Shown: one piece after another, positions 948-25,228 of the stretch
Numbering within the stretch: position 1 is the stretch's first letter
Layout of the letters: every line of letters starts with the position of its first letter
Source of the DNA: an uncultured Clostridia bacterium
GTDB lineage: Bacteria; Bacillota; Clostridia; Christensenellales; Borkfalkiaceae
DNA: 64,000 nt
NCBI GenBank assembly: GCA_947630245.1
Contig: CANRGR010000001.1
Coordinates: forward strand, 11,175 to 75,174
Direction of reading: 5' to 3'
Program-made: the position numbers and the translations under genes
The notes under the pieces: generated by a model
Databases searched by the model: none
The model's input: the letters and a program-made list of their open reading frames with translations, nothing else
What the model was told of the DNA's origin: nothing

Positions 948-3938
948 ATGAAAAAATGGCTCAACCGAATCATTCCGCCCGCCGTGACGCTTGTCGTCGT
1001 CGGCATTGTCGTCATGATCATCGTCGGTTATTTCCGCTTCATTTCCGTGCAGGTCCGCACGGACAGCGAACGGCATCTCAAAGAAGTCTACGGACAGGTC
1101 ACCCGCTCGTTCCAATCCTTTATCGACAGCAACTGGGGCTTTCTGGAAAGCTGTAAGGAATATTACGCCGCCGTCTCTTCGGACGAGAATCCCGACGATC
1201 CCGCGCAGATGAGACCGTTCATCGAAGCGCAGAAAAAGTATTGGAACTTCACCGAATTCTTCTTCCTCGATGAAAATAGAAATTACTATGCCTTCGGCGC
1301 GGATCAGCGGAGCGGGACGCCGCTTAAAAACGCGCCCGATTCCATGATCCACAACAAGGCTCCCATCATGATGGGCGAAGAGATCAACGGCACGGAAGTC
1401 ACCATGTTCGCCGTTGCGGCGGACGGGGTGTACAAGGGATTCCCGTTCAGCGCGGTCAGCGTCTCTTATACCAATTCCGATCTCGCCGCCTCGCTCGACG
1501 CGGACGCCTTCGAAGAGGACGGCGAATCGCTCGCGGAATGCTACGTCATCCGTCCCGACGGGAGCGTGCTCCTCTCCACCGAAAAGGGCGGGGGCTCCAT
1601 GCGGAACTATTTCGACTATCTCGACGGAATGCTCGACGGGATGGAAATCGCAAAGATCAAGGAAGATCTCAATCGGCTCGCGGAAGAAAAGAACGACGAC
1701 AAAAGAGAGAGCTACGGATATCTGCAATGCAAGATCATGGGCGAGGACCGCTGTCTCATCTATATGCCCATCGACTACGAGTATGCGGATTACTTCTTGC
1801 TCGGCGACGTTCCGCAGACCGCGGTGAGCCAGGGCTTCCTGCTCGCCCAGCGCGCCACGATGCGGGTACTGCTCATCATCTTCTCCCTCATCCTCGCGGC
1901 GCTTCTCATCATTCTCGCACTGCGCATCATCCGTCAATCCAAGCGCAGTAAAAAAGAATTGCAGTACCGGGAGCGGATGTTCGACGTCCTCTCCAACAAC
2001 GTCAACGATATCTTCCTCATGCTGGATCCGCAGACGCAGAAGGTGGACTATATCAGCCCGAACATCGAACGTCTCCTCGGCATCAGCGTCAAAGTCGCCC
2101 GCAGTAACATCCGCGCGATGGCGGCGTGCGCGGTCGATTACAACATCGTCGTCCCGGACGAGGAACTGCGCGCCATCCGCATCGGCGAGAACAAGAGCTG
2201 GGAATGCGAGTATATGCATCAGGCGACGGGCGAACGCAGATGGTACCGCGTCATGATCTATCACATGAGCATTCAGGGCATGGAGAAGTACGTCATCGTC
2301 ATGTCCGACCGCACGCTCGACAAACAGCTCAACCAGAAGTTGCAGGAGGCGCTCGACGCGGCAAAGAGCGCGAACGAGGCGAAGAGCAACTTCCTCTCGA
2401 ATATGTCGCACGACATCCGCACGCCGATGAACGCGATCGTCGGGTTCTCGGTGCTCCTCGAACGGAACGCTTCGGAGCCCGAACTTGTGCGCGAATATAC
2501 GCGCAAGATCATGGCGTCGAGCCATCATCTGCTCTCCCTCATCAACGACGTGCTCGACATGAGCAAGATCGAGAGCGGCAAGACTTCCCTCAATCTGGAA
2601 CGGTTCAGTCTGCCCGACCTGCTCGAAGAGATCAACATCATCATCACGCCGCAAGCGAAGGCAAAGGCGCAGGAATTTTGCATCCACACGCAGGGAATGC
2701 CGCCCAACGACCTCATGGGAGACCGTCTGCGCCTCAACCAGATTCTCTTCAACCTGCTCTCCAATGCCGTCAAATATACGCCCACGGAAGGCAAAATCGA
2801 CTTTACCGTGCAGGAACTGCCCGAACCGTCGCCGCAGTTCACAAAGCTACGCTTCATTGTCAAGGACACCGGCATCGGCATGAGCGAAGAGTTCATCCAA
2901 GAGATCTTCCAGCCGTTCAGCCGCGAGAAAAATTCCGTCGTCAACAAAATTCAGGGCACGGGGCTCGGAATGGCGATCACAAAGAGCCTCGTCGATCTGA
3001 TGGGCGGCATCATCCGCGTGGAGAGCGCGCCCGGGAAGGGAAGCACGTTTACGGTGGAACTCTCCTTCTCCCGCGTCGAAGAGGAGACGCAGGACGCATG
3101 GTTCCGCCAGAAGATCACGCGCATGCTCGTCGCGGACGACGAGGAGGAAATCTGCCTGAATATCCGCGAAATGATGCACGACACGGGCGTGGATGTCGGC
3201 TATGTGACGGACGGTCGCGCCGCCGTGGACGCCGCGGTCCATGCGCACGAACGTCATTCCGATTTCGACGTCATCCTGCTCGACTGGAAGATGCCCCAAA
3301 TGGACGGCGTGGAGACGGCGCGGGCGATCCGCGAAAAGATCGGCTCGGACGTCCCCATCCTCGTGCTTACGTCCTACGATTGGAGCGATATCGAGGCGGA
3401 GGCACGGCAGGCGGGAATCAACGCCTTTATGCCGAAGCCCTTCTTCACGTCCACCTTCTTCCAGACGATCAAACCGCTCTTCTTCCCCACGGAGACGGAG
3501 CCGCAGTCCGCGCCGAGCGGCGTCATGGACGGAAAGCTCTTCCTCGTTGCGGAGGACAACGAGCTCAATGCGGAGATTCTCACCGAGATGCTGCTCATCG
3601 AGGGAGCAAAGTGCGAACTTGCGCAAAACGGCAAAGCCGCCCTCGAACTGTTCGAAAACTCGGAGCCCGGGCGGTACGATCTCATTCTGATGGACGTACA
3701 GATGCCCATCATGAACGGCTATGAGGCGACGCGGGCGATCCGCGCCCTGCCCCGCCCCGACGCAAAGAGCATTCCCATCGTCGCCATGACCGCGAACACC
3801 TTCGCCGAGGACGTGAAAAACGCGCTCGACGCGGGCATGAACGCCCATCTTGCAAAACCGATTGATATGGACGCCGTGAAAAAGACCGTTGCGCGGCTCC
3901 TTGAAAAACATGATTCTTCCGGAGGAGAGACCAAATGA
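948..3938 (+). CDS. hybrid sensor histidine kinase with two C-terminal receiver domains (HK1)
   Basis: ATG at 948 preceded by AAGGAGGAGA (931-940). Architecture: TM, about 280-aa extracytoplasmic region, TM, PAS-like segment, H-box [11 protein letters not shown], HATPase (GTGLGMAI), REC1 (ILLDWKMPQMDG), REC2 (LILMDVQMPIMNG). The ORF-track start at 144 is an upstream extension overlapping dut. Confidence 0.9.
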   Translation: MKKWLNRIIPPAVTLVVVGIVVMIIVGYFRFISVQVRTDSERHLKEVYGQVTRSFQSFIDSNWGFLESCKEYYAAVSSDENPDDPAQMRPFIEAQKKYWNFTEFFFLDENRNYYAFGADQRSGTPLKNAPDSMIHNKAPIMMGEEINGTEVTMFAVAADGVYKGFPFSAVSVSYTNSDLAASLDADAFEEDGESLAECYVIRPDGSVLLSTEKGGGSMRNYFDYLDGMLDGMEIAKIKEDLNRLAEEKNDDKRESYGYLQCKIMGEDRCLIYMPIDYEYADYFLLGDVPQTAVSQGFLLAQRATMRVLLIIFSLILAALLIILALRIIRQSKRSKKELQYRERMFDVLSNNVNDIFLMLDPQTQKVDYISPNIERLLGISVKVARSNIRAMAACAVDYNIVVPDEELRAIRIGENKSWECEYMHQATGERRWYRVMIYHMSIQGMEKYVIVMSDRTLDKQLNQKLQEALDAAKSANEAKSNFLSNMSHDIRTPMNAIVGFSVLLERNASEPELVREYTRKIMASSHHLLSLINDVLDMSKIESGKTSLNLERFSLPDLLEEINIIITPQAKAKAQEFCIHTQGMPPNDLMGDRLRLNQILFNLLSNAVKYTPTEGKIDFTVQELPEPSPQFTKLRFIVKDTGIGMSEEFIQEIFQPFSREKNSVVNKIQGTGLGMAITKSLVDLMGGIIRVESAPGKGSTFTVELSFSRVEEETQDAWFRQKITRMLVADDEEEICLNIREMMHDTGVDVGYVTDGRAAVDAAVHAHERHSDFDVILLDWKMPQMDGVETARAIREKIGSDVPILVLTSYDWSDIEAEARQAGINAFMPKPFFTSTFFQTIKPLFFPTETEPQSAPSGVMDGKLFLVAEDNELNAEILTEMLLIEGAKCELAQNGKAALELFENSEPGRYDLILMDVQMPIMNGYEATRAIRALPRPDAKSIPIVAMTANTFAEDVKNALDAGMNAHLAKPIDMDAVKKTVARLLEKHDSSGGETK

Positions 3939-5185: not shown

Positions 5186-5212
5186 GTTAGCCGCCGAAAA
5201 TCCAAAATTTTA

Positions 5213-5235
5213 CCGCCCCGCAGGGCGGTTTTTTT
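5213..5235 (+). terminator. rho-independent terminator after the SBP gene
   Basis: CCGCCC-CGCA-GGGCGG followed by TTTTTTT. Confidence 0.8.
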
Positions 5236-5241
5236 ACGGCA

Positions 5242-5266: not shown

Positions 5267-5282
5267 CCGAAGGTTTTACGGA

Positions 5283-5876
5283 TTAACCGTTATCGAGTTC
5301 GTAGAAGTCGATGACGACCGTGACGCCGATCGACGCGCTATCCGGCAGATTGTCCGACCCGCCCGCGAGGCTCAGCGAGGACATCGAGCAGCGGTAACCC
5401 GTCGTCATGAGCGCCATCACGAGATCTTTCGCCCTGTCGTACACGCTCTCCGCGTCGTACTTGTAGGCTTCGTTCACGGTGAAGCGGAAGGTAACTCTCC
5501 GCGTGCGGACGCCGTCCGAGGGCTCGGAGATATTGAAACCGATGTCCGCCTTCATGTCCGCGAAGATCGTATTGAAGATCGCATTGAGCGTTTCCTGTTG
5601 CTCGTTGTTGTTGTAGTCGGGCATTCTGGTCTCGTCGCCGCTCGCCTTGATCTTTTCAAGTTCCTCTTTCATGCGGTCGTATTCGACTTTGAGCGCCTTT
5701 GCAACGTCCATCTGCAACTGGACTTCTTCGAGCTGTTCGTTGACTTCCGCGGTACGGGCGGAGATGGGATAATAGACGAGCCCGAAATAGAGCCCGACGA
5801 GGAGCACCACGAGGAGTACGACGAGAAGGATTTTCTCGCGCAGAGTAAAGCGGCGTTTCAGATACTTATTTGCCAT
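5283..5876 (-). CDS. pilO: PilO-like type IV pilus assembly protein
   Basis: 197 aa with an N-terminal TM (ILLVVLLVVLLVGLYFGLV), a coiled-coil segment and a C-terminal alpha/beta region. It is the last gene of pilM-N-O in a T4P operon. The name rests on context and architecture. Confidence 0.65.
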   Translation of the reverse strand: MANKYLKRRFTLREKILLVVLLVVLLVGLYFGLVYYPISARTAEVNEQLEEVQLQMDVAKALKVEYDRMKEELEKIKASGDETRMPDYNNNEQQETLNAIFNTIFADMKADIGFNISEPSDGVRTRRVTFRFTVNEAYKYDAESVYDRAKDLVMALMTTGYRCSMSSLSLAGGSDNLPDSASIGVTVVIDFYELDNG

Positions 5877-5881
5877 TTCGA

Positions 5882-6511
5882 TTACCTCCCCTCCGAAGGA
5901 TCGTTAAACACGATCGTCATGGTAACGCCCGCGCTCTCGCCGTCTTCGAGATTCGTCCGCGAAACAAAGACGTTGAACACGAGATCATCTTCGCGGATCT
6001 CCTTCTGCATGGCTTCGAGGTCATCACGGGAGACGTCGGCGACATTCAGCACAACGGTATTGTTGCTCGAAATGTTGACGCTCGTAATCTTGCCGCGCTC
6101 GAACACCGTTCTTTCGAGGAGGGCGAGGATCTCCGCGCGGTCGACAATGTTGCGCGGGAAGTTCTCATAGTTGTATTGGCGGTAATCCGCACGGATCTGA
6201 TCGCGGTCGCTCATCGAATTTTGAAGCTGGGAAAGTTCCGTCTCATTCGCGGCGAGCTGTTTTTCCTTTTGTTCGATCTCGCGGTACGGGAGATATGCGC
6301 CGAAATACTCGATGACGAGGAGAACCGCAAAGAAGATGATGAGGATGATGAAAAAGGTTTCGTAAGAAATGCTTTTTCTCTCCTTCATGCAGAGATTGAC
6401 GGTCTCTTTCGAAGAATATTTCGGCGGAACGGGAGCGGCGCCTTGCGCCGAATGGGACGCCACATCGTATTCAACGACCTTGACATCGGCTTCCTTGACT
6501 TTTTTCGCCAT
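5882..6511 (-). CDS. pilN: PilN-like type IV pilus assembly protein
   Basis: Start at the ATG at 6511 (MAKKVKE) with a GGAGGAAAC RBS. Single TM (FFIILIIFFAVLLVIEYF) followed by a coiled coil; lies between pilM and pilO. Confidence 0.65.
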   Translation of the reverse strand: MAKKVKEADVKVVEYDVASHSAQGAAPVPPKYSSKETVNLCMKERKSISYETFFIILIIFFAVLLVIEYFGAYLPYREIEQKEKQLAANETELSQLQNSMSDRDQIRADYRQYNYENFPRNIVDRAEILALLERTVFERGKITSVNISSNNTVVLNVADVSRDDLEAMQKEIREDDLVFNVFVSRTNLEDGESAGVTMTIVFNDPSEGR

Positions 6512-6524
6512 GAAAGTTTCCTCC

Positions 6525-7508
6525 TTATTGCAGAGCGACGCCCGCGGCGGTGGCAATGAGCGGGAAGTCGATTGCGTCTTTGGATTGATTTTCCCCGAAG
6601 AACTCGCTCATATCGGTGAGCGGGATGGGCAGCGTGCCGCGGAGCGTGTTCATGAGCGCCTCGTTGTGGGCGCCGCCGCCGCAGCAATGCAGATGTTCGA
6701 GAGAGCTCCCGCCGTTGAAACGGTAGAAGTTGATCGCTTTGAGCACTTCGAGCGCCATAGCGCCGTACACGGTGCGGCAGGCGTCGAGCTCGTTCGCGCC
6801 GTTGAAGTTGTTCTCGCGGTACGTCCCCGCCATGAAGGAATCGACGCCGAACTTCTCGGAGATGATCTCGTCGAGCGCATTGCAACCGTAGTCGATGACG
6901 CGCACGCCCTCGAAGAGAGTGCCGTCGTAGAGGAAGAGCTTCACGGCGTTGTGTCCGATGTCGAGAATGCCGTGATGATGCGGCGGAACGGACGCCTTGC
7001 GCAGAAGATTCACATAGGCGAACTCCTCGGGAATGATGGTTTTGAGTTTGAATCCCGCCTTGTGGAACATATTGATGTAATCTTCAATCACTTCTTTGCG
7101 GGCGGCCGTTGCGAGCACGTCGAACTCGGGCAGATGATCCTCTCCCGAGCGCACGGCGTTGAGGACGGCGCAGTCGAAGAAGTAATTGCTCTTGTCGTCC
7201 GTGATGAAATCGCGGAATCCGTAGGGCAGATTGAACATCAACTGCTCGCGGGTATTTGCCGCAACGAAGAATCTGCGGCAATAGCAGAGCGGCGCGGGCA
7301 AGATGAGCGCGGCGTTGCGCGTGGGCAATTTCTGCGTCTTGCGGATCTCTTTGAGGAAATCGGACATCGCCTCCAAAGATGTGATGACGCCGTTCTTCAC
7401 GAGATCGGCGGCGATCCGCACGGAAATGCCGCGCACGATCGAGCCCTTCTTCTGGACCGCGATGTGTACCGCATGATTCCCGATGTCGAAACCGATGCAA
7501 TGCTTCAT
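6525..7508 (-). CDS. pilM: PilM, actin-like type IV pilus assembly ATPase
   Basis: 327 aa. N-terminal IGFDIGNHAVHIA and a later GILDIGHNAVKL are phosphate-1/2-like motifs of the actin/HSP70 fold. Position directly after pilD. Confidence 0.8.
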   Translation of the reverse strand: MKHCIGFDIGNHAVHIAVQKKGSIVRGISVRIAADLVKNGVITSLEAMSDFLKEIRKTQKLPTRNAALILPAPLCYCRRFFVAANTREQLMFNLPYGFRDFITDDKSNYFFDCAVLNAVRSGEDHLPEFDVLATAARKEVIEDYINMFHKAGFKLKTIIPEEFAYVNLLRKASVPPHHHGILDIGHNAVKLFLYDGTLFEGVRVIDYGCNALDEIISEKFGVDSFMAGTYRENNFNGANELDACRTVYGAMALEVLKAINFYRFNGGSSLEHLHCCGGGAHNEALMNTLRGTLPIPLTDMSEFFGENQSKDAIDFPLIATAAGVALQ

Positions 7509-7523: not shown

Positions 7524-8306
7524 TTATAAAATGAGCGAAAGATACAAATCTATCAGGTCCTGCCCTACGAGGAGGGTGATCACCGTTGCAATCGCAATGG
7601 ACGGACCGAACGGAAACTCCTTTTTGTCCCCCTTCCGCATGGAGAAGGAACAGACGAGCCCGATGATACAGGCGAGCAGGAGCATCAGCAGTCCGCCCAC
7701 GGGACCCGTGAACAGCCCCAACATGGCAAACAGTTTGATGTCCCCTCCGCCGAGGGTCTCCTTTTTGAGGACCATGTCCATCAGCAGGGACAAGACCAAC
7801 GTGCCGCCGCCGTAGATCGCCGCGCCGAGCAACCCGTCCTGTACGCGGGAAGCCGCGCCCCCGTGGGGATACAACATCACCGCAAACAGCACCGCGCCGC
7901 TCACCGTGAGCCCGTCGGGAATCTCCATCGTGTCGTAGTCGATGAGCGAAACGGCAAGGAGCACAGAGAACAGAATGAGATATTCGAGCGTGACGAACGT
8001 GAATCCGAAACGCAGGAAGGTGGCAAGATACAGGAGCGCGCACAAAAGCTCGGTAAAGAGACATCTCGCGGGAATGGGCGCGCCGCAGTTCCGGCACTTG
8101 CCGCGCAGGAACAGGTAGCTGAAAATCGGAATGAGATCGAGCGCGCCGAGCGTTTTGCCGCAGACGGGACAATGACTCCTCCCTTTGAGCACGCTCTCCT
8201 TTGCGACATAGCGATCCGCCGCACAGTTGATGAAACTGCCGAGACAGGCGCCTAAGCAAAAGAGAACAATCGCAAGATAGAGCATGACCGCCGAAGGCAA
8301 TTCCAT
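7524..8306 (-). CDS. pilD: prepilin peptidase (A24 family)
   Basis: Start at the ATG at 8306 (MELPSAVM) with a GGAGGGAAG RBS. N-terminal Cys motif CPVCGKTL...CRNCGAPI, multiple TM segments, GGGDIKL catalytic-Asp region. Confidence 0.9.
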   Translation of the reverse strand: MELPSAVMLYLAIVLFCLGACLGSFINCAADRYVAKESVLKGRSHCPVCGKTLGALDLIPIFSYLFLRGKCRNCGAPIPARCLFTELLCALLYLATFLRFGFTFVTLEYLILFSVLLAVSLIDYDTMEIPDGLTVSGAVLFAVMLYPHGGAASRVQDGLLGAAIYGGGTLVLSLLMDMVLKKETLGGGDIKLFAMLGLFTGPVGGLLMLLLACIIGLVCSFSMRKGDKKEFPFGPSIAIATVITLLVGQDLIDLYLSLIL

Positions 8307-8329: not shown

Positions 8330-8764
8330 TTTGCGCTTTCCCGTCATTCCGCCATTCTTTCCTGTCATTCCGAGGGCACGCAGTGCCCGCCCCGCCCGCA
8401 TTCTTTTTCACGAAGGGCGGCACGAGGAGCGCCAGCGACGAAGTAGTGAATCCCCTCGTTCAAAGCGAACTTCGTATTGGGGGATACACTCCTCCCTCGC
8501 TCCGCTCGGTCGTCGGTATGACAGCGGGGTGCGGACTGCGCTCTTCCTGTCATTCCCCTGTTCTTTCCTGTCATTCCGAACCCCCGAAGGGGGTGAGAGA
8601 ATCCCCTTGTTCAAAACGGACTTCGTATTAGGGGATACACTCGCTACGCTCGGTATGACAGCGGGGCGCGGACTGCGCTCTTCCCTGTCATTCCCCTGTT
8701 CTTTCCTGTCATTCCGAACCCCCGAAGGGGGTGAGAGAATCCCCTCGGTCGATGTTCTTCCCTG
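8330..8764. repeat. intergenic repeat array R1 (about three tandem composite units)
   Basis: Repeated modules: GTCATTCCGA-[hairpin core]-GAGAATCCCC (8364-8455, 8570-8606, 8708-8744), ...ACTTCGTATnnGGGGATACACTC, and GCTCGGT(CGTCGG)TATGACAGCGGGGnGCGGACTGCG. The same modules recur at five other loci. Confidence 0.9.
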
Positions 8765-9040
8765 TCATTCAAGAGAAAGGTCGTTCCATGCAGGATTCCC
8801 CTGCGCTATGAGCTTTACTTTATTGTTATGAGAAAGTTTTTTCACAACTTTCTCGCGTGTAATCGCGTCCTCAATTTGCGTGTACGATTCAAAATAAACC
8901 AACTTCTTTATTTGGTATCTCTTGGTGAACCCGTCGTTCACACCGTTTTTATGCTCGTAAACTCGGCGATTGAGATCGTTTGTGACTCCCGTGTACAACA
9001 CAGTATTGTGTTGGTTTGTCATAATGTAAACGTAATACAT
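8765..9040 (-). CDS. GIY-YIG nuclease family protein (UPF0213/COG2827-like)
   Basis: MYYVYIMTNQHNTVLYTGVTNDLNRRVYEHK... carries the GIY (YVYIM), YTG(V) and R-x3-EH motifs. Clearly more AT-rich than its flanks and embedded between repeat arrays. Confidence 0.85.
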   Translation of the reverse strand: MYYVYIMTNQHNTVLYTGVTNDLNRRVYEHKNGVNDGFTKRYQIKKLVYFESYTQIEDAITREKVVKKLSHNNKVKLIAQGNPAWNDLSLE

Positions 9041-9070
9041 TCAACGCCGTCTTTTTTCACGCCTGTTTGC

Positions 9071-9279
9071 GCCGTCATTCCTCTGTTCTTCCCTGTCATT
9101 CCCCTGTTCTTTCCTGTCATTCCGAACCCCCGAAGGGGGTGAGAGAATCCCCTTGTTCAAAGCGAACTTCGTATCAGGGGATACACTCCTCCCTCGCTCC
9201 GCTCGGTCGTCGGTATGACAGTGGTGTGCGGAACTCGCTCCGCTCGGTCGTCGGTATGACAGTGGTGCGCGGTATGACA
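9071..9279. repeat. intergenic repeat array R2
   Basis: Same modules as R1: GTCATTCC variants 9074-9120, full hairpin module 9113-9152, GGGGATACACTC, and three TATGACA units. Confidence 0.85.
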
Positions 9280-9418
9280 ATTTACGATGTGATAACAGCC
9301 GCAAGGGGGTGCGGGTGTTATGACATCGGGGGGCTTGCGCCCTCCAATGCAACTCTCCGATCCGCCGCATCCCTCATCCCTGTCCGGCGGATCAAAGAGT
9401 TTATGTTTTCAGAATTGA

Positions 9419-9889
9419 TTAGGATTTAGGAATATCCGTAACACTGGTTTCCGTCAAGAGCAATTTAACCGTGTAACCACCGTTGTCGGCTTTCTTTGCT
9501 TCACCCGCAGTCGTATAGGTTGCAGTACCGGTATAGCTCTTATCCGTCTTCGCGACACCAGTCGCAATCGGAGTGACTACCAGTTTCGTAAAATCACCGT
9601 TTGAGGAAATCGTTGCGTCAACCGTCCATGCTCTGACATTGTTTTCGGTACCTTGACCAGTAGGCGCTGCCCAAACTTCACCTGCAGCAGTTTTCTCACT
9701 GTTTTCAAGAAGATAAACAATAGCCGTGCTACGGGTAGTGCGGATATTAGCATCCTTAGTAGCATCCTCTGCCTTGCCAAGCGCACCCACAAAGAGCGGG
9801 ACTGCAATCGCAACAAGGACTGCGATGATCGCAACAACGATCAGGAGTTCGGCAAGGGTAAAGCCCTTGCGGTTCTTTCTTTTCAACAT
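9419..9889 (-). CDS. pilA: type IV major pilin (prepilin with class III signal)
   Basis: MLKRKNRKG|FTLAELLIVVAIIAVLVAIAVPLF has the canonical G/F cleavage site, Glu+5 and a hydrophobic alpha1-N. 156 aa, with GC visibly lower than the neighbours. Confidence 0.9.
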   Translation of the reverse strand: MLKRKNRKGFTLAELLIVVAIIAVLVAIAVPLFVGALGKAEDATKDANIRTTRSTAIVYLLENSEKTAAGEVWAAPTGQGTENNVRAWTVDATISSNGDFTKLVVTPIATGVAKTDKSYTGTATYTTAGEAKKADNGGYTVKLLLTETSVTDIPKS

Positions 9890-9974
9890 AGTTTCATTCT
9901 CCTTATAAAATCATGATTTTATTTCTACCGCCTACGGGATGAATAGGCGTTCGAAACCTTGTTTAATGGGGCCC

Positions 9975-10427
9975 CCCCTCGCTACGCTCGGTATGACGGC
10001 GGGGGCTCCCGCTTGGCGCCCCTCGCAGGGGAGCTCCGCCCGCAGGGCGGTGAGGGGTTTCTGAAACCCTTTCGGCTCACTCCGTTCGCCACTTCCCCTA
10101 TAAGGGGCAGCAAGGGTGCGGACTGCGTATCAGGGGATACACTCCTCCCTCGCTCCGCTCGGTCGTCGGTATGACAACGGGGTGCGGACTGCGCTTTCCT
10201 GTCATTCCGAACCCCCGAAGGGGGTGAGAGAATCCCCTTGTTCAAAGCGGACTTCGTATCAGGGGATACACTCGCTACGCTCGGTATGACAGTGGGGTGC
10301 GGACTTCGTATCAGGGGATACACTCCTCCCTCGCTTCGCTCGGTCGTCGGTATGACAGTGGGGCGCGGACTGCGTATCAGGGGATACACTCGGGCTCCGC
10401 CCTCGGTATGACAACGCGGGTGCGAGG
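9975..10427. repeat. intergenic repeat array R3
   Basis: Contains the about 110-bp module GGCTCCCGCTTGGCGCCCCTCGCAGGGGAGCTCCGCCCGCAGGGCGGTGAGGGGTTTCTGAAACCC...CCCCTATAAGGGGCAGCAAG (10005-10114), one GTCATTCCGA hairpin module (10198-10237) and four GGGGATACACTC/TATGACA units. Confidence 0.9.
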
Positions 10428-17294: not shown

Positions 17295-17657
17295 TCAACC
17301 CGCGAGACCGTCCGCAAATTGCGCGATCGCGGCAACGGTGCGCTCGTAGTCCGCGCGCACGGCGGGCAGATATTCGGCATAGCCGTCGAGACTTCCGCCG
17401 CGGAGCGATTCCGTCAACGCCGTCGCCGACTTTTCAAGCAACGTAAAACTCAGATTCTGGCACATTCCCTTGATGGTATGCGCCGCACGGAATGCCTCTT
17501 GCGCATTTCCCTCTTCGAGCGAACGCAAAAGCAGTTCATAGCTTCCGTCCGCAGGGAATTTGAGCACAAATTTTTGCACGAGTCTCTCGCTGCGCAACCG
17601 ACCGATCACTGCGTCGTAATCCCCGCCGAGCGCCCGATAACATTCCGTAAGCGTCAT
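17295..17657 (-). CDS. Hpt (histidine phosphotransfer) domain protein
   Basis: Start at the ATG at 17657 (MTLTECY) with an AGAGGTG RBS. AAHTIKGMCQNL is the Hpt phospho-His motif; about 120-aa helical protein. Confidence 0.8.
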   Translation of the reverse strand: MTLTECYRALGGDYDAVIGRLRSERLVQKFVLKFPADGSYELLLRSLEEGNAQEAFRAAHTIKGMCQNLSFTLLEKSATALTESLRGGSLDGYAEYLPAVRADYERTVAAIAQFADGLAG

Positions 17658-17679: not shown

Positions 17680-19764
17680 TCAATCAACCGTTTTGGGAGA
17701 ATCGGGCAGATCCGCGTCCTTCAACGCGGCGTCGTCCTCCATAGATTCGTCATAGAACCGGTACCGCGACCGTCCCTGCTTCTTTGCGGCATAGAGCGCG
17801 ATGTCCGCCTTGCGGAACAGTCCCTTGTACTCCTCGTCCGCGGAGCTCTTTTCGCAGATTCCCATGCTCACCGTGAGCGCAAAATCCCCCACCGCGCCGC
17901 AGATCGCTCCGAACACACGCGCGATGATGGGATGGATGTCGGTATCGTACTCAAAGACGATGAGAAATTCGTCGCCGCCGATGCGCGCGCAGAGATCCCC
18001 TGCCCGCGTGCCGTGAATGAGGCGGTCCGCCACGACGCGGAGCACCCTGTCTCCGAAGAGATGACCGTAGGTGTCGTTCGCATTCTTGAAGAAATCAATG
18101 TCGAACACGGCGACGGCATATTTATGCGCGGGATAATTCGCAAGTTTGCGGTCGATTTCCTCGCCGACGCCGTTGCGGTTCAGAAGTCCCGTGAGCGGAT
18201 CGCGGATGGAGCTCTCCTTCAAAGACGCCAGCTCGTTGTGCAGTTCATGCACGTCCATCAGTTTTCCGATGGCGCTCGTGATCCGCGGCTCGATGTCGTC
18301 CGACCAGATCGCGCGCACGATGACGCGGTACCAGCGCAGTTCGCCGCCGATGGGAAGCTCGCATTCGTAGCGGAATTCGGGGTCTTGCGGCGACGTTTTC
18401 CGGAAAAATTGTATGATTCCTTCGAACCACGTCTTTCCGAGCTGTTCGCGGAGCCGAAGATCCTCGGCGGGGTGCAGAAGCTCGGTCTCGACGCCGAACT
18501 TTTTCGCTCCCGACGGCGAAAGTTTGAGAAGATCGTCGTCGACAAGGTATTCGAATTGGACCTCTTCGGTCAATTCGGCATAGAAATTGAATTTCATCCG
18601 CTCGTAATCGAGCAGTTTCAACGTGCGTTCGGACGCGCTGACGCCCTTTGCGTGATGCACCGCCTCCGCATAGTTGCGGATTTCGCGCCGCGCCGCGTTC
18701 GCCTGTGCGTCGTGCGACAGCTCGTCGCGGATGCGGTCGAATTCGTCCGACAGGCATTCGAGAAGGAGCGGGTTGAACGTCCCGCACTTTCCCGCAAGGA
18801 TCATCTCCTTCGCCTCTTCGGGCGGAAGCGGCGGTTTGTAGACCCGTTCGCTGGTGAGCGCGTCATAGACGTCCGCAAGCGCGACGATCTGGGCGGAAAT
18901 GGGGATTTCGTCCCCCTTCAATCCGTCGGGGTAACCCCTCCCGTCCCAACGCTCGTGATGCCAACGGCAGATCTCATAGGCATGCTGCACAAGCGGATTG
19001 TCCTTATGGGCGGAGAGCCCTTCGAGCATATTCGCCCCGATCATGCTGTGGGTTTTCATAACGGCGAACTCCTCATCTGTGAGTTTGCCGGGTTTATTGA
19101 GAATTTTATCGTCGATCCCGATCTTGCCGATGTCATGCAGGGCGGACGCCTTTGCGATGACGGAGATATCGCGGTCGGTCAGCGGATAGCGGTCCGTCTT
19201 GCGGACCAGTTTGCGAAGCAGAAAGTCGGTGATCGTGCGGACATGCAGGATATGCAGTCCGCTCTCGCCGTTGCGGAATTCGACGATGTGGCTCAGAATG
19301 TCCACCATCATGCTGCTGTCGCGCTCGTTCTCGTCGATCTGCTGTTCGATGATCCCGAGAAGCTGGCGCTGTTTCACATAGAGGAAGATCGTATTGAGCA
19401 CGCGGCGATGGACGATGGAGGCGTCGAACGGGCGCATGATGAAGTCCGTCGCGCCGAGTGAGTATGCCCTCTCGATCTGATCGGACGCCGTCTCCGCGGA
19501 GACCATGATCACGGGAAGATCTTCGATGAGACGGGTGCGGTTCATCTCCGAGAGCACGTCGAAACCGTCTTTCTTGGGCATTACGATGTCGAGCAGAACG
19601 AGAGAGAAGGTTTTCGCGCTGCGGTCAAGGATCGCAAGCGCCGCTTCGCCGTCCTCCGCTTCCTCGATGTCGAACTCATCCGCCAACATGTCCGCGAGAA
19701 TGGAACGGTTCATCTCGGAATCGTCTACGATCAGTATTTTTTCTCTCCCCTTCCCCTTCTGCAT
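17680..19764 (-). CDS. response regulator with HD-GYP phosphodiesterase and GGDEF diguanylate cyclase domains
   Basis: REC (ILIVDDSE...LLDIVMPKKDG), HD-GYP (ALHDIGK...HHERWDGRGYPDGL), a middle PAS-like region, and GGDEF (RAGDLCARIGGDEFLIV, i.e. RxxD I-site five residues before an intact GGDEF). Confidence 0.85.
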   Translation of the reverse strand: MQKGKGREKILIVDDSEMNRSILADMLADEFDIEEAEDGEAALAILDRSAKTFSLVLLDIVMPKKDGFDVLSEMNRTRLIEDLPVIMVSAETASDQIERAYSLGATDFIMRPFDASIVHRRVLNTIFLYVKQRQLLGIIEQQIDENERDSSMMVDILSHIVEFRNGESGLHILHVRTITDFLLRKLVRKTDRYPLTDRDISVIAKASALHDIGKIGIDDKILNKPGKLTDEEFAVMKTHSMIGANMLEGLSAHKDNPLVQHAYEICRWHHERWDGRGYPDGLKGDEIPISAQIVALADVYDALTSERVYKPPLPPEEAKEMILAGKCGTFNPLLLECLSDEFDRIRDELSHDAQANAARREIRNYAEAVHHAKGVSASERTLKLLDYERMKFNFYAELTEEVQFEYLVDDDLLKLSPSGAKKFGVETELLHPAEDLRLREQLGKTWFEGIIQFFRKTSPQDPEFRYECELPIGGELRWYRVIVRAIWSDDIEPRITSAIGKLMDVHELHNELASLKESSIRDPLTGLLNRNGVGEEIDRKLANYPAHKYAVAVFDIDFFKNANDTYGHLFGDRVLRVVADRLIHGTRAGDLCARIGGDEFLIVFEYDTDIHPIIARVFGAICGAVGDFALTVSMGICEKSSADEEYKGLFRKADIALYAAKKQGRSRYRFYDESMEDDAALKDADLPDSPKTVD

Positions 19765-19785: not shown

Positions 19786-21519
19786 TTATTCGGTCTTTCC
19801 CTCTTCCGCCGCGGCAACTTCCGCCTCGGGCGTCTCCGCGTCTTGCTTTGCGAGATTGTCGAATGTCCCGCCGTCGACGAAGAACCGTTTCGCGAGACCC
19901 CTATCTACGAGTTCATGTATCCCTTCATAGGGCAGATAGTAATCCTCTTCGGGATGTTCGGCGCGTTCCGTGCCGATCCGCTCCATGCACACGGCGATGA
20001 GTTCCGCCGCACGCTTTGCGCGCCTGTCGTTCTTGATGCGGTACATGCAGGGCGTATCCTCGACCGATTTGTTCTCGGAGACGTCCTCCACCTTGTATTT
20101 GGATTCGAGATAGTCGTTGGCGTCGAGCGGGAGGAAGAGGCAGAGCGACTTGCCGCGGAATCCGAATCTCGCGACGCACTCCCTGCCGTAGCGGTAGGAC
20201 TCCCGTTTCCAGCTCATGCGGCTCTTGATCTTGCGATAGGAGAGCAGTTCGTTTTTGAGCTGACCGTACCAACGCTTCGTATCGTCGCTCGACTGGATGA
20301 GCCGCGCGGTGAAGCTGCGGTCGTAGCAGAGCAGAGTGACGTCCTCATCCTCGGGCTGCGGGAGAACGACGGTGACGGTGTAGGACGCCGTCTTGTCGAG
20401 ATAGCGGATGATAACCTCGTGTTCCCCCTCCGCCGTCATGTCGGGCGCCTCCACTTCATAGTCGACGAGCTGTTCGCTGTACGGCTCCGCGTCGTAGTCC
20501 GCCGTCACGATGAGCCCCATGCTGTTGAACTCTTCGCCCGCCGTAAATTCGCGGCGCACGACGCTCGTATCGAGAGAGATCCCCACGAGCGCGCGCCCTT
20601 CGGCGACGAACACGGGGTAAGTCTGTGTAAATTCGCGGTAATGCACGACGACGTTCGTCATGCCCTTCACCGAAAGATCGGGCGGATCGACGGTGAAATC
20701 GGTCACGCGTTCCCCTTCGGCTTCCCCTTCGTAGCGGGCGATCACGCCCAGCCCGTTGCAATCGAATTCCTCGCCGACGAGGAAATCGGTCTTGACGAAA
20801 TCGAGATCGAGATCAATCCCGACGAGGGTGCGCTCCGCCGCGGGCAGAACGTTGATGGTGTAAAATTCGATGAAATCGTCAAAGCGGACGGCGACGGATT
20901 TTTCTCCCGGCACGTCCATATCCGGTTCGTCCACGGAATAGCTGTACACTTCTTCGGAAAAAGGTTCTTCGTTGTAATTTGCGCGAACGACGAGCCCGCC
21001 GCATTCGAAGGGCTCGCCCGCATGAAATTCCGTATGAACGGCGGAGACGTCGAGCACAATCCCGATGACCGACCGCTCCGCCGCGGGAACGACGTCAATG
21101 GTATACATTGCGGAAAATCCGCCGTATCTGACCGTAACCGAGGGGCTTCCCGCCGCGTCCAGCGAAGGAGGATCGACCAGATAATCCGTAATCGGCTCCA
21201 TCAGACCGTCGCTGTACCGCGCGTTGACCGTGAGCCCGCTGCATTCGAAGGCGTCGCCCACCGTGAATTTGCGTCTGACGGCAGAGGCGTCGAGCACGAT
21301 CCCGACGAGCGCATGTTCCTCCCGCTCGCCTTCCGCAGTATTCGCGACGAGGATCGTCTGCTTTGCCCTGCCGAAGGAATGCTTGCGCAACAGGATGATG
21401 ACGAGCGCAAGGATCGCCACGGCAACAATCACGAGCTGCGCGAACATCAGGATCAGGACCGCGGTGGAAACGGTCCATTCGAGTTCCAACCCGAAGATGC
21501 TGAAACATAAATTCGACAT
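19786..21519 (-). CDS. membrane-anchored protein with four tandem Ig-like repeats and a conserved uncharacterised C-terminal domain
   Basis: Start at the ATG at 21519 (MSNLCFS) with a GGAGAAAGGAGAA RBS. One TM (AVLILMFAQLVIVAVAILALVIILL). Four repeats of about 80 aa fitting LVGI-LD-S-V---F--GE-F---GL-V-A-Y...V-DY-VD-PD(M/L)---G---V-V-Y. The last 170 aa or so is K/R-rich (RSFTARLIQSSDDTKRWYGQLKNELLSYRKIKSRMSW...). Confidence 0.8.
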   Translation of the reverse strand: MSNLCFSIFGLELEWTVSTAVLILMFAQLVIVAVAILALVIILLRKHSFGRAKQTILVANTAEGEREEHALVGIVLDASAVRRKFTVGDAFECSGLTVNARYSDGLMEPITDYLVDPPSLDAAGSPSVTVRYGGFSAMYTIDVVPAAERSVIGIVLDVSAVHTEFHAGEPFECGGLVVRANYNEEPFSEEVYSYSVDEPDMDVPGEKSVAVRFDDFIEFYTINVLPAAERTLVGIDLDLDFVKTDFLVGEEFDCNGLGVIARYEGEAEGERVTDFTVDPPDLSVKGMTNVVVHYREFTQTYPVFVAEGRALVGISLDTSVVRREFTAGEEFNSMGLIVTADYDAEPYSEQLVDYEVEAPDMTAEGEHEVIIRYLDKTASYTVTVVLPQPEDEDVTLLCYDRSFTARLIQSSDDTKRWYGQLKNELLSYRKIKSRMSWKRESYRYGRECVARFGFRGKSLCLFLPLDANDYLESKYKVEDVSENKSVEDTPCMYRIKNDRRAKRAAELIAVCMERIGTERAEHPEEDYYLPYEGIHELVDRGLAKRFFVDGGTFDNLAKQDAETPEAEVAAAEEGKTE

Positions 21520-21618
21520 ACGGTTTCTCCTTTCTCCGATTACGGTTTGCAAAAACAGCTTCCGCTGAGATCTTTTTCCGTTGCACTCCATGCAAAATCA
21601 TTGAAATTGCACAGAGTG

Positions 21619-21647: not shown

Positions 21648-21668
21648 GTAAAAACGTAAGATTTCGGG

Positions 21669-21694
21669 AAAAAATTCCCGTCGGGCGGACGGAA
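21669..21694 (-). terminator. terminator after SBP2
   Basis: On the minus strand: TTCCGTC-CGCCC-GACGGGAA followed by TTTTTT. Confidence 0.6.
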
Positions 21695-21767
21695 TTGCGG
21701 AAAACAGACCCCTTCCGCGCATTTCCGAGAATAGTTTTATGTAGTTTTCGCCCTCCGTATGCGGACG

Positions 21768-23060
21768 CTATTCCTCGGACAGGCGGGGAAATCCCTTGAT
21801 CGCCCCGGCAATATCGTCCCCCGCGCCCACGCGTTGCAGAAGTTTCCACCACGCGCTGCGCGCCTCCGCCCAGTGGGGCGTGATCTGATAATAGTCCCCG
21901 AGATAGCGGCTGAAAGACGCATATTCGGTCATGAGCTCGTCGTTTTCGTAGGGATCGCGCTCCATCGTACGCACGGGCAGATAGGAGGAAAGCGTCACCG
22001 CCGCCGAATAACTGTCGCCGTTGATGAAACGGATAAATTCTTTCGCCGCCGCGATGCGGTCGTCGTCGCCGTTGTCAAAGATGCCGAATCCCCAGATGCC
22101 GCCTTGCAGGGAAGGTTCCCCCTCGCCCGTCGGAAACGCCATCGGCAGAATGTCGAAATCAATGTTGGGATTGGTGACCGTCTGCGTGACTTCCGCGGCG
22201 ACGTTCCAACAGAACGCCATCGCCATTTCCTTGTCGCAGAACGCGATAATCTCATCGGAGCCGACAAACGTCGGGTCGAACCGGATCCCCTCCGTCTCTT
22301 TCAGAAGGCGGAGCGCCGCGATATTTTCGGGGGAATCCACGGTGTAGACCGTGTGCTGCGGGTCGGTAAAGCTGCCGCCGCAGAGATTTGTGACGAGCGC
22401 GCGCGTGCCCTGGTCGCCGCCCTGCCCGCCGCAGTAGACGACCGCGACGTCCTTGTCGAGCCCCTGCTCCTCATAATAGCTACGGATCGCTCCGACCGCC
22501 TTCACGAAATTTTCCGTCGTCCAGGTGTGGGTCGTCTCGTCGAGATACTTCAACGCCCCTGCCTCTTCGAACAGATCGCGGTTGATTGCCATGCAATGGG
22601 TCGTCATGCAGAGCGGATAGATGAAGTAGTCGCCCTTTCCGTCGTGGCATGCCTCCGCGACGTTCCGCCGGATCGACGACGCCGCGTCCTCCTTCCAGAG
22701 GTCGTTGAGATCTGCCATCAGACCGCGCGCACCCCAGGTTGCGACGAGGCGCTCGGGACCTTCGAGTACGAGATCGGGCGCGGTGCCCTCCTCGATCGCG
22801 CTCTCGATTTCTCCGTCCCCCGTGGAGTAATCCACGCATTTCACCGTGACGCGGATCTCGGGATGGATCTGGCGGAACGCCGTGAGGAAGGGGGCGATGG
22901 TACTGCTCTTGTCCCATCCCCCCACGGGATACGTCCAAAGGGAGATCTCCACTTCCGTGGGCTCTTCCGTCCCGCTTTGACCGGGACCGTCCCCGGCGGG
23001 AGAACACGCCGCGCCGCACAGCAACAGAAGTCCGGCGATGATACATGCGAATTTTTTCAT
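21768..23060 (-). CDS. extracellular solute-binding lipoprotein (family-1, sugar-type), orphan (SBP2)
   Basis: Signal peptide MKKFACIIAGLLLLCGAAC; 430 aa with sugar-SBP-like composition. Start lies 5 nt after the HK2 stop. No permease or ATPase genes adjacent. Confidence 0.8.
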   Translation of the reverse strand: MKKFACIIAGLLLLCGAACSPAGDGPGQSGTEEPTEVEISLWTYPVGGWDKSSTIAPFLTAFRQIHPEIRVTVKCVDYSTGDGEIESAIEEGTAPDLVLEGPERLVATWGARGLMADLNDLWKEDAASSIRRNVAEACHDGKGDYFIYPLCMTTHCMAINRDLFEEAGALKYLDETTHTWTTENFVKAVGAIRSYYEEQGLDKDVAVVYCGGQGGDQGTRALVTNLCGGSFTDPQHTVYTVDSPENIAALRLLKETEGIRFDPTFVGSDEIIAFCDKEMAMAFCWNVAAEVTQTVTNPNIDFDILPMAFPTGEGEPSLQGGIWGFGIFDNGDDDRIAAAKEFIRFINGDSYSAAVTLSSYLPVRTMERDPYENDELMTEYASFSRYLGDYYQITPHWAEARSAWWKLLQRVGAGDDIAGAIKGFPRLSEE

Positions 23061-23065
23061 TTTCT

Positions 23066-25228
23066 CTATTTTCCCTCTTCGAAATATTCTTTCAGAAGTT
23101 TGCAGACAAGCGCCATATCAATCGGTTTTGCCGTATGCGCATTCATGCCGCACGCAAGACAGCGGGAGACGTCGTCCGAAAAGGCGTCTGCGCTCATGGC
23201 GATGATGGGAACCGTCTTTGCGTCGGGACGGTCCATCGCGCGGATCGCCTCCGTCGCCTCATAGCCGGACATGACGGGCATGCGGATATCCATAAAGATC
23301 ACATCGTAATAGCCGACGGGAGACGCTGCGAACAGATCGGCGCACAGTTTTCCGTTCTCCGCCGATTCGACGATGAGCCCGACTTCCGAGAACAGCTCCT
23401 CCGCAATCTCGCGGTTGAGTTCGTTGTCCTCGGCGAGAAGAACGCGCTTCCCGCCGAAATCCGCCGCCTCTTCCTCGGGGGAGAGAGCAAGCTCTCCGGA
23501 GCGCTCAAAATCGAGCGTGACGCGGAATTCCGTGCCCTGTCCGGGCGCGCTGTCGAATTCGATCTCGCCGTGCATCGAGTCGACGATATATTTCGTGATC
23601 GCCATTCCGAGCCCCGATCCCTCGATTTGATGGACCCGTCCGCTGTCCTCGCGGGCAAACGCGTCGAATACCTGCTTTTGGAAGTTCTCCGTCATGCCGA
23701 TGCCCGTGTCCTTCACGCGAAAGACGACCCGCACGAAATTCTCCCCGCGCGGGGAATCCTCCTCCCGGCAGACGAGCAGGATCGATCCCTCCTCGGGCGT
23801 GAATTTCACCGCGTTGCCGAGCAGGTTGAGCAGAATCTGGTTGAGCCGCACGCCGTCGCAACGGACATTTTCGACGGTCAGCGCGTCGATCTCGGTTTCG
23901 AAGTTCTGACCCTTTGCACGGGTCTGCGGCTGGATGATGCCGACGACGTTCCCGAGCGTCTCGCGAAGGGAGACCGTCTCCTCGTGCAGTTCGAGTTTTC
24001 CGCTCTCGATCTTGGACATGTCGAGAATATCGTTGATGAGCCCGAGCAGATGACGGCTCGACATGGCGATCTTGTCGAGACAGTTTTTCACCTGTTCCTC
24101 GTTTCCGACATTGCTGCGCGCGATCGCGGTCATGCCGACAATGCCGTTCATGGGCGTGCGGATGTCGTGGCTCATATTGGACAGAAATTCGCTCTTCGCC
24201 CGATTGGCATGCTCCGCCTCTTTGCGCATCTGTTCCAATGCGCGCATTTGACTGCGGGTGAGACGGTAATAAAAGACGAACACGACGAGGAGCGCAATCA
24301 GAATGACGAGACAGCTGAGAACTGCCGCCAGGCTCCACGACTGCCCGAGGGCGTTGACCGTCGTATTGAGCGGTCCGTAGGGCAGGAACAGCAAAAGATA
24401 CCAATCCGAATAGGGCAGCGCCGTCTCGTAGGAAAACCGCCGCTCGCCGTCGAGCGTAAACTCGACCGAAAACTCCCTGCCGTCCTCCATCGCGCTTTGC
24501 AGTTCTTCGAGATATACTTCCTTTTCGAGTTCTTCTCCGTCCTTGCGGATCGCGCCGTAGCGGCTGCGGACGCGGTCGAAAAAATTTGCCTCATCGCTCT
24601 CGATTCCGCCGCGGAGAATGATCGTCCCGTCCCCGTCGACGATGAAATAATAGATGGACATGCTCGTGAGGTCCACCGAGAGCGCGTCGCTGATGTAGGA
24701 GATGGGACGGGTTGCGACGAGCGCGACGCTCGTTTGTCCGTCCGACATGGGATAGGCGGCGGGGACCCCCATCACGACGAAACGCTCGCCATAAGAATCG
24801 CTCCCGCTCGACATTGTCTCCCCGCCCGAGACGAGAATGTCCAGAAAGTATTCCTCGCGGTCGATCGAGAGCGTACTGCCGTACAGCATATCAATGGAAC
24901 CGTCGGCGGCGATCAGCGCAAGACGGTCGAACCCGCGGTTGCGGGCGTGCGACCGCAGCGCCGTGTGCAGCGCCGCGGGTTCGAGTTTGCTCTCGGGCGG
25001 AACGGCGTCGATGATTGCGCTGACCTGCGAAAGCCTGAGTTCGAAAGTCGTCCCGAAATGAGCGGCGGACTGTTTGCTCATGTCCGCCATATAAATAGAG
25101 CCGAGTTTGCCGATCGCATCCGCGCCTCGTTTGTTCATGACATATGCCATGAACAGAAAAACGGCGACGCACAGAACCGAAATACAGACGATGCTGACGA
25201 GCAAAAAACGGGCTGTTTTGTTTTTCAT
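23066..25228 (-). CDS. hybrid sensor histidine kinase with one receiver domain (HK2)
   Basis: Start at the ATG at 25228 (MKNKTARF). Architecture: TM, extracytoplasmic region, TM, H-box [11 protein letters not shown], HATPase (GSGLGMAI), REC ([13 protein letters not shown]). Confidence 0.9.

Follow-up and report, generated by a model that had tools for sequence, protein, structure and literature searches.

A putative cyclic di-GMP phosphorelay cassette beside type IV pilus or flagellar operons in gut Oscillospiraceae

In Vibrio, LuxP-LuxQ, CqsS and other hybrid kinases signal through LuxU, a histidine phosphotransfer (Hpt) protein, to the sigma-54 activator LuxO, and LuxP serves as the periplasmic solute-binding protein of LuxQ outside any transporter. 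The clostridial XylFII-LytS/YesN system uses a transporter-independent solute-binding lipoprotein to present a sugar signal to an adjacent membrane kinase. Hk1 of Borrelia burgdorferi, a hybrid kinase with an Hpt and solute-binding-type sensor domains, phosphorylates the REC-GGDEF protein Rrp1, and in Clostridioides difficile a cyclic di-GMP (c-di-GMP) riboswitch lies upstream of flgB. Here we compare these systems with a locus of an uncultured Clostridia bacterium, in which genes for three hybrid histidine kinases (HK1, HK2 and HK3), a stand-alone Hpt and a REC/HD-GYP/GGDEF protein (here called RHG) lie around a type IV pilus operon. The locus occupies positions 948-25228 of the window, which is the whole 64-kb stretch of DNA that was analyzed (GenBank assembly GCA_947630245.1, contig CANRGR010000001.1, positions 11,175 to 75,174).

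On balance, and with moderate confidence, the genes and motifs lead us to favor a multi-kinase relay that runs through the one Hpt to the dual c-di-GMP enzyme, with the MshE-type region of the pilus extension ATPase PilB as a local receptor. The core would be a three-gene c-di-GMP phosphorelay made up of the membrane hybrid kinase HK3, the stand-alone Hpt and RHG. HK3 would autophosphorylate, and the phosphoryl group would move by way of the kinase's terminal receiver and Hpt to Asp59 of RHG, where phosphorylation would shift the balance between c-di-GMP breakdown by HD-GYP and synthesis by GGDEF. HK1 and HK2 each appear to pair with a secreted carbohydrate-type binding lipoprotein (solute-binding proteins SBP1 and SBP2) in place of a transporter and, without an Hpt or output regulator of their own, would feed the same Hpt. 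The cell could in this way integrate up to three extracellular cues, at least two of which would probably be sugars or oligosaccharides. c-di-GMP would then bind the tandem MshE-type motifs at the PilB N terminus and set pilus extension post-translationally, with pilT supplying retraction. In flagellated relatives, the core lies beside a flagellar operon instead. The phosphotransfer steps are all inferred, and so are the direction of the output, the identity of the ligands and the binding of c-di-GMP by this PilB.

The Vibrio LuxPQ/CqsS-LuxU-LuxO relay is the closest in logic, with several hybrid kinases that have no Hpt leading to one Hpt and one receiver protein. However, the sensor domains are unrelated, the output is a c-di-GMP enzyme here and a sigma-54 activator there, the kinase cores fall far below the LuxQ equivalog cut-off (331 vs 1200 bits), and the host here belongs to the Gram-positive-type Clostridia. 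The XylFII-LytS/YesN system is alike in having a binding-lipoprotein gene beside a membrane kinase gene, but its kinase is not a hybrid and an AraC-type regulator of the transporter is adjacent, whereas the kinases here are hybrid and have neither regulator nor transporter beside them. RpfC-RpfG of Xanthomonas resembles the locus in joining a hybrid kinase and an Hpt to a REC-HD-GYP protein, c-di-GMP and pilus-dependent motility. It differs in that the Hpt of RpfC is fused to the kinase and RpfG has no GGDEF domain, while the receiver here carries Arg in place of Lys. The Xanthomonas pilus link runs through GGDEF, PilZ and FimX partners that bind PilB (PMC8389850) and not through an MshE-type motif on PilB.

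Two further systems are known in which a kinase controls a c-di-GMP enzyme. Along with Hk1-Rrp1, there is the dCache kinase AsrK of Vibrio furnissii, which controls the phosphodiesterase activity of AsrR, motility and biofilm formation (PMC11796354). Both consist of a single kinase and a single-activity enzyme with no physical link to pilus or flagellar operons, and the binding domains of Hk1 are fused to the kinase, in contrast to the separate lipoproteins found here. On the receptor side, the c-di-GMP-binding extension ATPases MshE of Vibrio cholerae, PilB2 of Clostridium perfringens, PilB of Myxococcus and PilF of Thermus have two 24-residue motifs with a 5-residue spacer at the N terminus (PMC11656802), as does the PilB of the window. 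For these ATPases we found no adjoining dedicated relay or c-di-GMP enzyme described; c-di-GMP binding by the PilB here is predicted. In C. difficile, c-di-GMP controls flagella and pili in opposite directions, which fits one module serving either organelle. A c-di-GMP riboswitch also lies upstream of its pilA1, according to the account of Bordeleau 2015 given in PMC11656802. By comparison, no Rfam RNA family matched at gathering score anywhere in the window, and no c-di-GMP riboswitch did so in the window or in 13 related loci, which fits post-translational control.

Every class of component is already known. The earlier note on this DNA knew of no description of the arrangement as a unit, and no description of it was found in the literature we searched. 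What is new is that a stand-alone Hpt and a REC(Arg)/HD-GYP/GGDEF regulator together make up a cassette conserved in gut Oscillospiraceae, that this cassette is coupled to pili in some lineages and to flagella in others, and that binding-protein-coupled kinases join it as accessories. The locus looks like familiar parts in a new arrangement, which probably couples the sensing of sugars to the use of pili or flagella.

A conserved three-gene core beside pilus or flagellar operons

One genome per species was scanned for relatives of RHG, which gave 574, and the best 80 loci were kept. The comparison covers 81 non-redundant species-level loci, on which the window proteins and a flagellar set were mapped by tblastn. 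Open reading frames (ORFs) were also clustered without prior labels and the recurrent clusters annotated, with the conserved antisense ORFs of GC-rich genomes filtered out. RHG has hundreds of close relatives, and those that carry a name belong to Oscillibacter or Lawsonibacter. The closest, at 62-77% identity, come from rabbit-gut metagenome-assembled genomes (MAGs) labeled 'uncultured Clostridia'; the other loci, at 51-56%, are labeled as Oscillibacter, Lawsonibacter, Flavonifractor or unclassified MAGs of Oscillospiraceae, Clostridia or Lachnospiraceae.

Hpt follows RHG in 72 of the 81 loci and the hybrid kinase cluster is present in 64, so the conserved unit is RHG-Hpt-hybrid kinase. The full-length orthologues of HK3 are 56-72% identical to it. 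In the window, the three genes lie on the minus strand, with RHG (694 aa) at 17680-19764, Hpt (120 aa) at 17295-17657 and HK3 at 14600-17263. The region had previously been proposed to act as one 24-kb cluster. The three-gene core is indeed conserved across species, but the 24-kb block is not the constant unit.

The motifs of the core are intact. By Pfam, RHG consists of REC, HD-GYP, a linker of about 170 aa and GGDEF. The window protein has D14, D15, D59 and S89 in its receiver, LHDIGK and HHERWDGRGYP in its HD-GYP domain, and RAGD-LCARI-GGDEF near its C terminus, and these positions are invariant in an alignment of 10 sequences with 53-76% identity to it. In the wider set of orthologues, the acceptor Asp59, the HD dyad and HHExxDGxGYP are each present in 80/80, and RxxD with GG(D/E)EF in 78/80. 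These motifs suggest an active HD-GYP phosphodiesterase together with a GGDEF cyclase that has an RxxD inhibitory site five residues upstream of its active site. Profile searches of the PDB agree: residues 142-347 matched the HD-GYP structures PmGH (4mcw) and PA4781 (4r8z), and residues 508-667 matched PleD best, along with other cyclases. Hpt scores 38.6 bits against the PF01627 cut-off of 24.6 and has its phosphorylatable His in HTIKG; HT[ILV]KG occurs in 69/69 orthologues.

The genes next to the core change from lineage to lineage. The operon pilB-pilT-pilC-pilA-pilD-pilMNO follows it only in the clade of the window, which comprises 8 loci with an RHG identity of at least 62%. In 21 other species, the core abuts the flagellar flgB/C-fliE-fliF-fliG-fliH-fliI operon, which is divergent upstream in 12 and co-directional downstream in 9. 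Oscillibacter sp. 1-3, a culturable relative, has the flagellar version. In the clustering of ORFs, recurrent functional neighbors were of two kinds only, flagellar genes in 21 loci and type IV pilus genes in 10. The other recurrent neighbors were unrelated housekeeping genes, namely RNase J-like, phosphoglucomutase (PGM), Rnf and formate-THF ligase (FTHFS). Of the 29 loci whose flanks reach 9 kb or more in each direction, 11 have flagellar genes, 4 have pilus genes and 14 have neither. Two loci carry a different pilus-type set, in which a transglutaminase-like protein and small ORFs accompany a PilC-like T2SSF protein and a PilT-like ATPase. It lies directly upstream of RHG in one (L042, 4898-9952) and directly upstream of HK1-SBP1-RHG in the other (L045, 997-5607), and its ATPase is 42-45% identical to PilT of the window.

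There are therefore four junction types: pilus downstream, second pilus-type set upstream, flagella divergent and flagella co-directional. Each occupies its own part of a neighbor-joining tree of RHG, which argues for about four independent juxtapositions and not 31. Like the gene content, the intact motifs and the conservation of the core, this repeated juxtaposition with pilus or flagellar operons is a direct observation.

The sister loci also bear on whether the pilus operon is truly nested among the signaling genes. Four loci that directly adjoin the pilus clade in the RHG tree have HK1-SBP1 next to the core. In L021, RHG-Hpt-HK3 is followed by a convergent SBP1-HK1, all as full-length orthologues of 56-62% identity; in L057, RHG-Hpt is followed by a convergent SBP1-HK1; and in L045 and L083, SBP1, or HK1-SBP1, lies directly upstream of RHG. 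L021 thus has the layout of the window minus the 9-kb pilus operon. The nesting of this operon within the signaling genes, as claimed earlier, is real because HK1-SBP1 adjoins the core in a sister group that lacks a pilus operon there. The synteny also extends beyond this genome, since GCA_947595585.1 (RHG 72% identical) repeats the whole block in the order HK2-SBP2-Big_3-RHG-Hpt-HK3-pilB...pilO with a convergent SBP1-HK1, including a GIY-YIG ORF.

Inputs, the receiver of RHG and the pilus ATPase

All three kinases are hybrid, as expected from the first reading of the DNA, with HisKA, HATPase_c and one or two REC domains above the Pfam cut-offs. HK1 (948-3938, plus strand) and HK3 each have a transmembrane segment, an extracellular domain (about 270 aa in HK1), a second transmembrane segment, HisKA, HATPase_c and two REC domains. 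HK2 (23066-25228, minus strand) has a weak dCache match below the Pfam cut-off, HisKA, HATPase_c and one REC. The 12-residue H-box is the same in the three proteins, and every REC has its acceptor Asp. The kinase cores score best against LuxQ/TorS/BarA models, but only the kinase and receiver core aligns and the best scores of 331-347 bits lie below the equivalog cut-offs of 676-1200, so the three are not assigned to these families. Identity among the terminal receivers of the three kinases is 53-54%, against 23-32% when they are compared with the internal receivers or with the receiver of RHG; this difference is compatible with a shared Hpt partner. None of the three has a fused Hpt domain, and the single Hpt proposed for the locus was borne out.

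The inputs appear to be different from each other. The three extracellular sensor domains have no detectable mutual similarity and the same is true of SBP1 and SBP2, which suggests three different cues. The sensor domains of HK1 and HK3 gave no Pfam match even at E 0.1. SBP1 (3935-5185, plus strand), a solute-binding lipoprotein of the SBP_bac_1/SBP_bac_8 type with a lipoprotein-type signal, has a start that overlaps the stop of HK1. In the PDB, it gave weak matches to maltose- and chitin-oligosaccharide-binding proteins, and it is NgcE-like at 26 bits. SBP2 (21768-23060, minus strand) is a carbohydrate-type solute-binding lipoprotein (SBP_bac_1/8) that matched 9rsi, a 'sugar ABC transporter, sugar-binding protein', at E 8e-58 and CbpB (7x0i) at E 8.5e-11. 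Judging by these matches, at least two of the inputs are probably sugars or oligosaccharides. By gene adjacency, HK1-SBP1 and HK2-SBP2 are transporter-independent pairs of binding protein and kinase here, in L003 and in L085-L087; no ABC permease or ATPase, Hpt or DNA-binding regulator was found beside either pair in the window or in the loci examined elsewhere (L085-L087). The HK1-SBP1 pair is conserved in many Oscillospiraceae.

The receiver of RHG counts as a REC domain by its Pfam score but is atypical. D14, D15, D59 and S89 are present, but the position of the conserved Lys-Pro (CheY K109) is occupied by Arg-Pro (RPF) in 80/80 orthologues (L003-L084). Residues 109-111 of the window protein are IMR (19431-19439), with the codon of Arg111 at 19431-19433. 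The receiver alone was searched against 1.84 billion representative proteins, and 40 single-stretch matches with 52-73% identity were picked. Of these nearest relatives, all 38 that were readable carry Arg, whereas Lys is found in 221/231 other receivers of the same match list. Most of the nearest relatives that are long enough carry HD-GYP, and some carry GGDEF as well. The Arg-bearing receivers look like a subfamily tied to HD-GYP outputs, to go by these architectures. A search of the literature gave no description of a Lys-to-Arg receiver variant. In CheY, the K109R change still permits phosphorylation but not activation, and dephosphorylation is slow.

The pilus genes form a Gram-positive-type type IV pilus set, all on the minus strand: pilB, pilT, pilC, pilA with a G/FxxxE leader, pilD and pilMNO, of which pilN and pilO rest on position and weak matches. 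PilB (12776-14470; MshEN and T2SSE) is the extension ATPase. The c-di-GMP motif of MshE is RLGxx(L/V/I)(L/V/I)xxG(L/V/I)(L/V/I)xxxxLxxxLxxQ, 24 residues long and present in two copies with a 5-residue spacer. In PilB, residues 5-28 form motif 1 with one Ala at position 11, residues 34-57 form an exact motif 2, and the spacer is KTKHE. The MshEN-like receptor motif noticed earlier was confirmed by NF053729, the NCBI curated model for the MshE-related c-di-GMP motif, which gave 64.7 bits (cut-off 38). Over residues 5-113, PilB aligns with the N-domain of MshE (5htl, E 6e-16) and also with the c-di-GMP domains of PilF. Both motifs are present in 6/7 PilB orthologues from related pilus loci; in L011, the second motif alone matched the pattern. 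Binding of c-di-GMP through this N-terminal region is known for MshE, for PilB2 of C. perfringens and for PilB of M. xanthus (PMC11656802). PilB of the window is accordingly a predicted c-di-GMP-binding ATPase of the MshE type.

The other genes of the operon follow PilB in order. PilT (11687-12736; T2SSE) is a retraction ATPase with 438.9 bits against the TIGR01420 pilT_fam cut-off of 319, and PilC (10429-11649) is the platform protein with two T2SSF domains. PilA (9419-9889; N_methyl) is the major prepilin, with the leader MLKRKNRKG/FTLAELL, and PilD (7524-8306; A24_N_bact and Peptidase_A24) is the prepilin peptidase. PilM (6525-7508) is above the PilM_2 cut-off, pilN (5882-6511) was assigned from its position, and pilO (5283-5876) has a weak T2SSM-like match; orthologues of the three keep the same order in L009, L011 and L085. 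Between pilA and pilD lies a stand-alone 91-aa ORF of the GIY-YIG nuclease family (8765-9040, minus strand; Pfam), which is found at the same position in the relative GCA_947595585.1 (L003/L085) with 57% identity. It is probably a passenger with no part in signaling.

Other features of the window

The gene map was based on Pfam scans of the large ORFs in the 1-27 kb region and on their translations. All the genes named in the earlier note were present where it had placed them. The GC content of the window is about 58%, and real genes have a GC content at third codon positions (GC3) of 0.73-0.81. The end coordinates 948 and 25228 coincide exactly with the probable start codons of HK1 and HK2. 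The HK1 ORF opens at 144, yet the Met at 948 is the likely start because of a dUTPase gene at 240-848 (minus strand) and a TTGCAA-17-TATAAT element at 843-871. The start of HK2 is supported by a promoter-like TTGACA-18-TAGAAT at 25358-25329 (minus strand). The coordinates also place HK1-SBP1, on the plus strand, in convergence with the pilO end of the minus-strand pil genes, as had been described, and a terminator-like hairpin with a T-run (5212-5229, plus strand) follows SBP1 in the convergent gap before pilO. A second such hairpin (21694-21676, minus strand) follows SBP2 and is itself followed by TTGCAT-17-TATAAT before the Big_3 gene, and a sigma-70-like promoter, TTGACA-17-TATCAT, matches the consensus upstream of pilB (14537-14509, minus strand). 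The promoter- and terminator-like sites were thus found at their expected positions as consensus matches, although the total number of such sites is not above the shuffled expectation.

The Big_3 gene (19786-21591, minus strand) encodes a membrane protein with four repeats by Pfam and lies 21 nt upstream of RHG, a position it also holds in L003-L006 and L008. Residues 410-601 (19789-20364, minus strand) form an uncharacterized C-terminal domain with an AF2 pLDDT of 86.5 and no Pfam match even at E 0.1. A Foldseek search of the PDB gave weak YdhG/DUF1801/YjbR-like matches with E 0.017 or worse. Its family consists of hypothetical proteins of 280-330 aa from gut Clostridia, and stand-alone copies lie just upstream of RHG in L006 and L011. 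NCBIfam gave no match for the Big_3 protein, Hpt or SBP2.

The long gaps pilC-pilA, pilA-GIY-YIG and GIY-YIG-pilD are filled with dense interspersed direct repeats (8330-9400 and 9970-10420). The repeat modules are about 40-120 nt long; for example, a 41-mer with a CCCCC-GAA-GGGGG hairpin occurs in four exact copies. Every copy is in plus orientation, none occurs elsewhere in the 64 kb, and the exact repeat core is absent from all 87 related loci. A structured RNA was considered and rejected, as the repeats fold no better than shuffles (z -0.02). The ORFs 9041-9370 and 9982-10389 were rejected as minor pilins: they have low GC3 and no family match, and their translations are repeat sequence.

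guaA and guaB come after HK2. The rest of the window is housekeeping, with IMPDH, LepA, glycogen phosphorylase, a HydABC-type hydrogenase, NadE, RecA, CinA, MiaB, FtsK, ABC-F and a fusion of alcohol and aldehyde dehydrogenases (ADH/ALDH). This fusion (60049-62691, plus strand; 880 aa) has an iron alcohol dehydrogenase at its N terminus and an aldehyde dehydrogenase at its C terminus, the reverse of the domain order in classical AdhE. A low-GC island at about 43000-46700 (GC 0.455 vs about 0.58), without ORFs of high GC3, may be foreign DNA; within it, 44368-45498 (plus strand) encodes a 376-aa protein with a zinc ribbon and BspA-type leucine-rich repeats. The ORFs 28588-29247 (minus strand), 29346-29999 (plus strand) and 30072-30914 (plus strand) have gene-like GC3 and no Pfam match at E<=1e-4. 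The absence of a DNA-binding response regulator, which had been claimed for the 24 kb, held there, and none was found among the large high-GC3 ORFs tested across the whole 64 kb.

Competing explanations and significance

The relay interpretation made in the earlier note is favored by the intact motifs, the conserved core and the motifs of PilB. It was borne out only in part: the constant unit is the three-gene core, the pilus link is found in a single clade, HK2-SBP2 is variable and the receiver of RHG has no Lys. Several observations weigh against a relay that joins all three kinases to the pilus. The organism is known from metagenome-type assemblies only, and other Hpt proteins or regulators may exist outside the 64 kb covered. 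The similarity of the terminal receivers may merely reflect a general receiver subfamily of hybrid kinases. As both catalytic domains of RHG appear to be active, the sequence does not tell which way the response goes, and with Arg in place of Lys the switch may be atypical. Other points fit a narrower explanation, the main rival, which we consider unlikely but deserving of attention. Here the functional unit would be limited to RHG-Hpt-HK3, while HK1-SBP1 and HK2-SBP2 would sense sugars independently and signal to unlinked partners (such as another Hpt and a DNA-binding regulator of glycan use), the pilus operon would have come to lie between them by a lineage-specific rearrangement, and c-di-GMP from RHG would enter a global pool without specific targeting of PilB. 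HK1-SBP1 is often found alone among unrelated genes in other Oscillospiraceae, and adjacency to the core is not obligatory. HK2-SBP2 is a variable accessory, present in three of the six clade loci with enough upstream sequence (L003, L006 and L008) and absent from the other three. The pilus junction is confined to one clade and represents about one evolutionary event, and 14 of the 29 loci flanked by 9 kb or more on each side have neither pili nor flagella within 10 kb. In addition, MshE-type motifs are widespread in PilB-type ATPases (PMC11656802) and would respond to c-di-GMP from any enzyme. Independent sensors would not readily account for HK1-SBP1 adjoining the core in at least three layouts across species, for the lack of an alternative Hpt, regulator or transporter beside either pair in the loci examined, or for the four separate types of junction at which the core meets pilus or flagellar operons.

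Another possible explanation is that the relay controls the organelle mainly through transcription or some other target, either because Hpt passes phosphate to an unlinked DNA-binding regulator or because c-di-GMP acts on an unidentified transcription factor or PilZ protein, with the PilB motif minor or structural. pilB has its own promoter-like site apart from the signaling operon, and c-di-GMP leaves the ATPase rate of PilB2 unchanged in vitro (PMC11656802), which also counts against PilB as the receptor. Moreover, the adjacent operon of the flagellated relatives has no MshE-type receptor, so another receptor must exist there. We regard control of this kind as improbable, given that neither the large ORFs tested in the 64 kb nor the relatives' loci examined yielded a DNA-binding regulator, that no riboswitch was found in the window or the 13 related loci, and that the motifs of PilB are kept in its orthologues. 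It also seems very improbable that RHG is not switched by phosphorylation at all, with its Arg receiver as a pseudo-receiver or a constitutive dimerization module and its HD-GYP/GGDEF part as a sensor or adaptor (through I-site binding, or protein contacts like those of RpfG with GGDEF proteins) or as an enzyme acting on another nucleotide. The uniformity of the Arg, set against the Lys of most other receivers, could be explained in this way, and the HD-GYP relatives matched in the PDB include a cGAMP-specific phosphodiesterase (5z7c). However, conservation extends to the acceptor Asp, the acidic pair, the Ser/Thr position and, strongly, all catalytic motifs of both enzyme domains, and an Hpt following RHG in 72 of the 81 loci is hard to explain without phosphotransfer.

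A broader picture is possible but remains tentative, and we hold it as doubtful. The core could be a portable phosphorelay cassette of gut Oscillospiraceae that was repeatedly wired, by adjacency, to whichever surface organelle a lineage uses, flagellum or type IV pilus, with binding-protein-coupled kinases as its carbohydrate inputs and a hitherto unnoticed Arg-receiver subfamily specialized for HD-GYP outputs. It could then act as a diet-responsive switch between swimming and sticking in fiber-associated gut Clostridia.

The Oscillospiraceae are abundant gut Clostridia, mostly uncultured, and to our knowledge almost nothing is known about how their motility and adhesion are controlled. The receiver subfamily flagged here has an invariant Lys-to-Arg change, whose effect on phosphorylation kinetics is measurable. 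If the multi-kinase relay is true, it would give a compact and testable route by which carbohydrates outside the cell act on pilus extension, or on the flagella of relatives, with defined biochemical parts in the three kinases, the two binding proteins, Hpt, RHG and the N terminus of PilB. It would also extend the Vibrio-style design of many kinases and one Hpt to a Gram-positive-type lineage, with a second messenger as its output.

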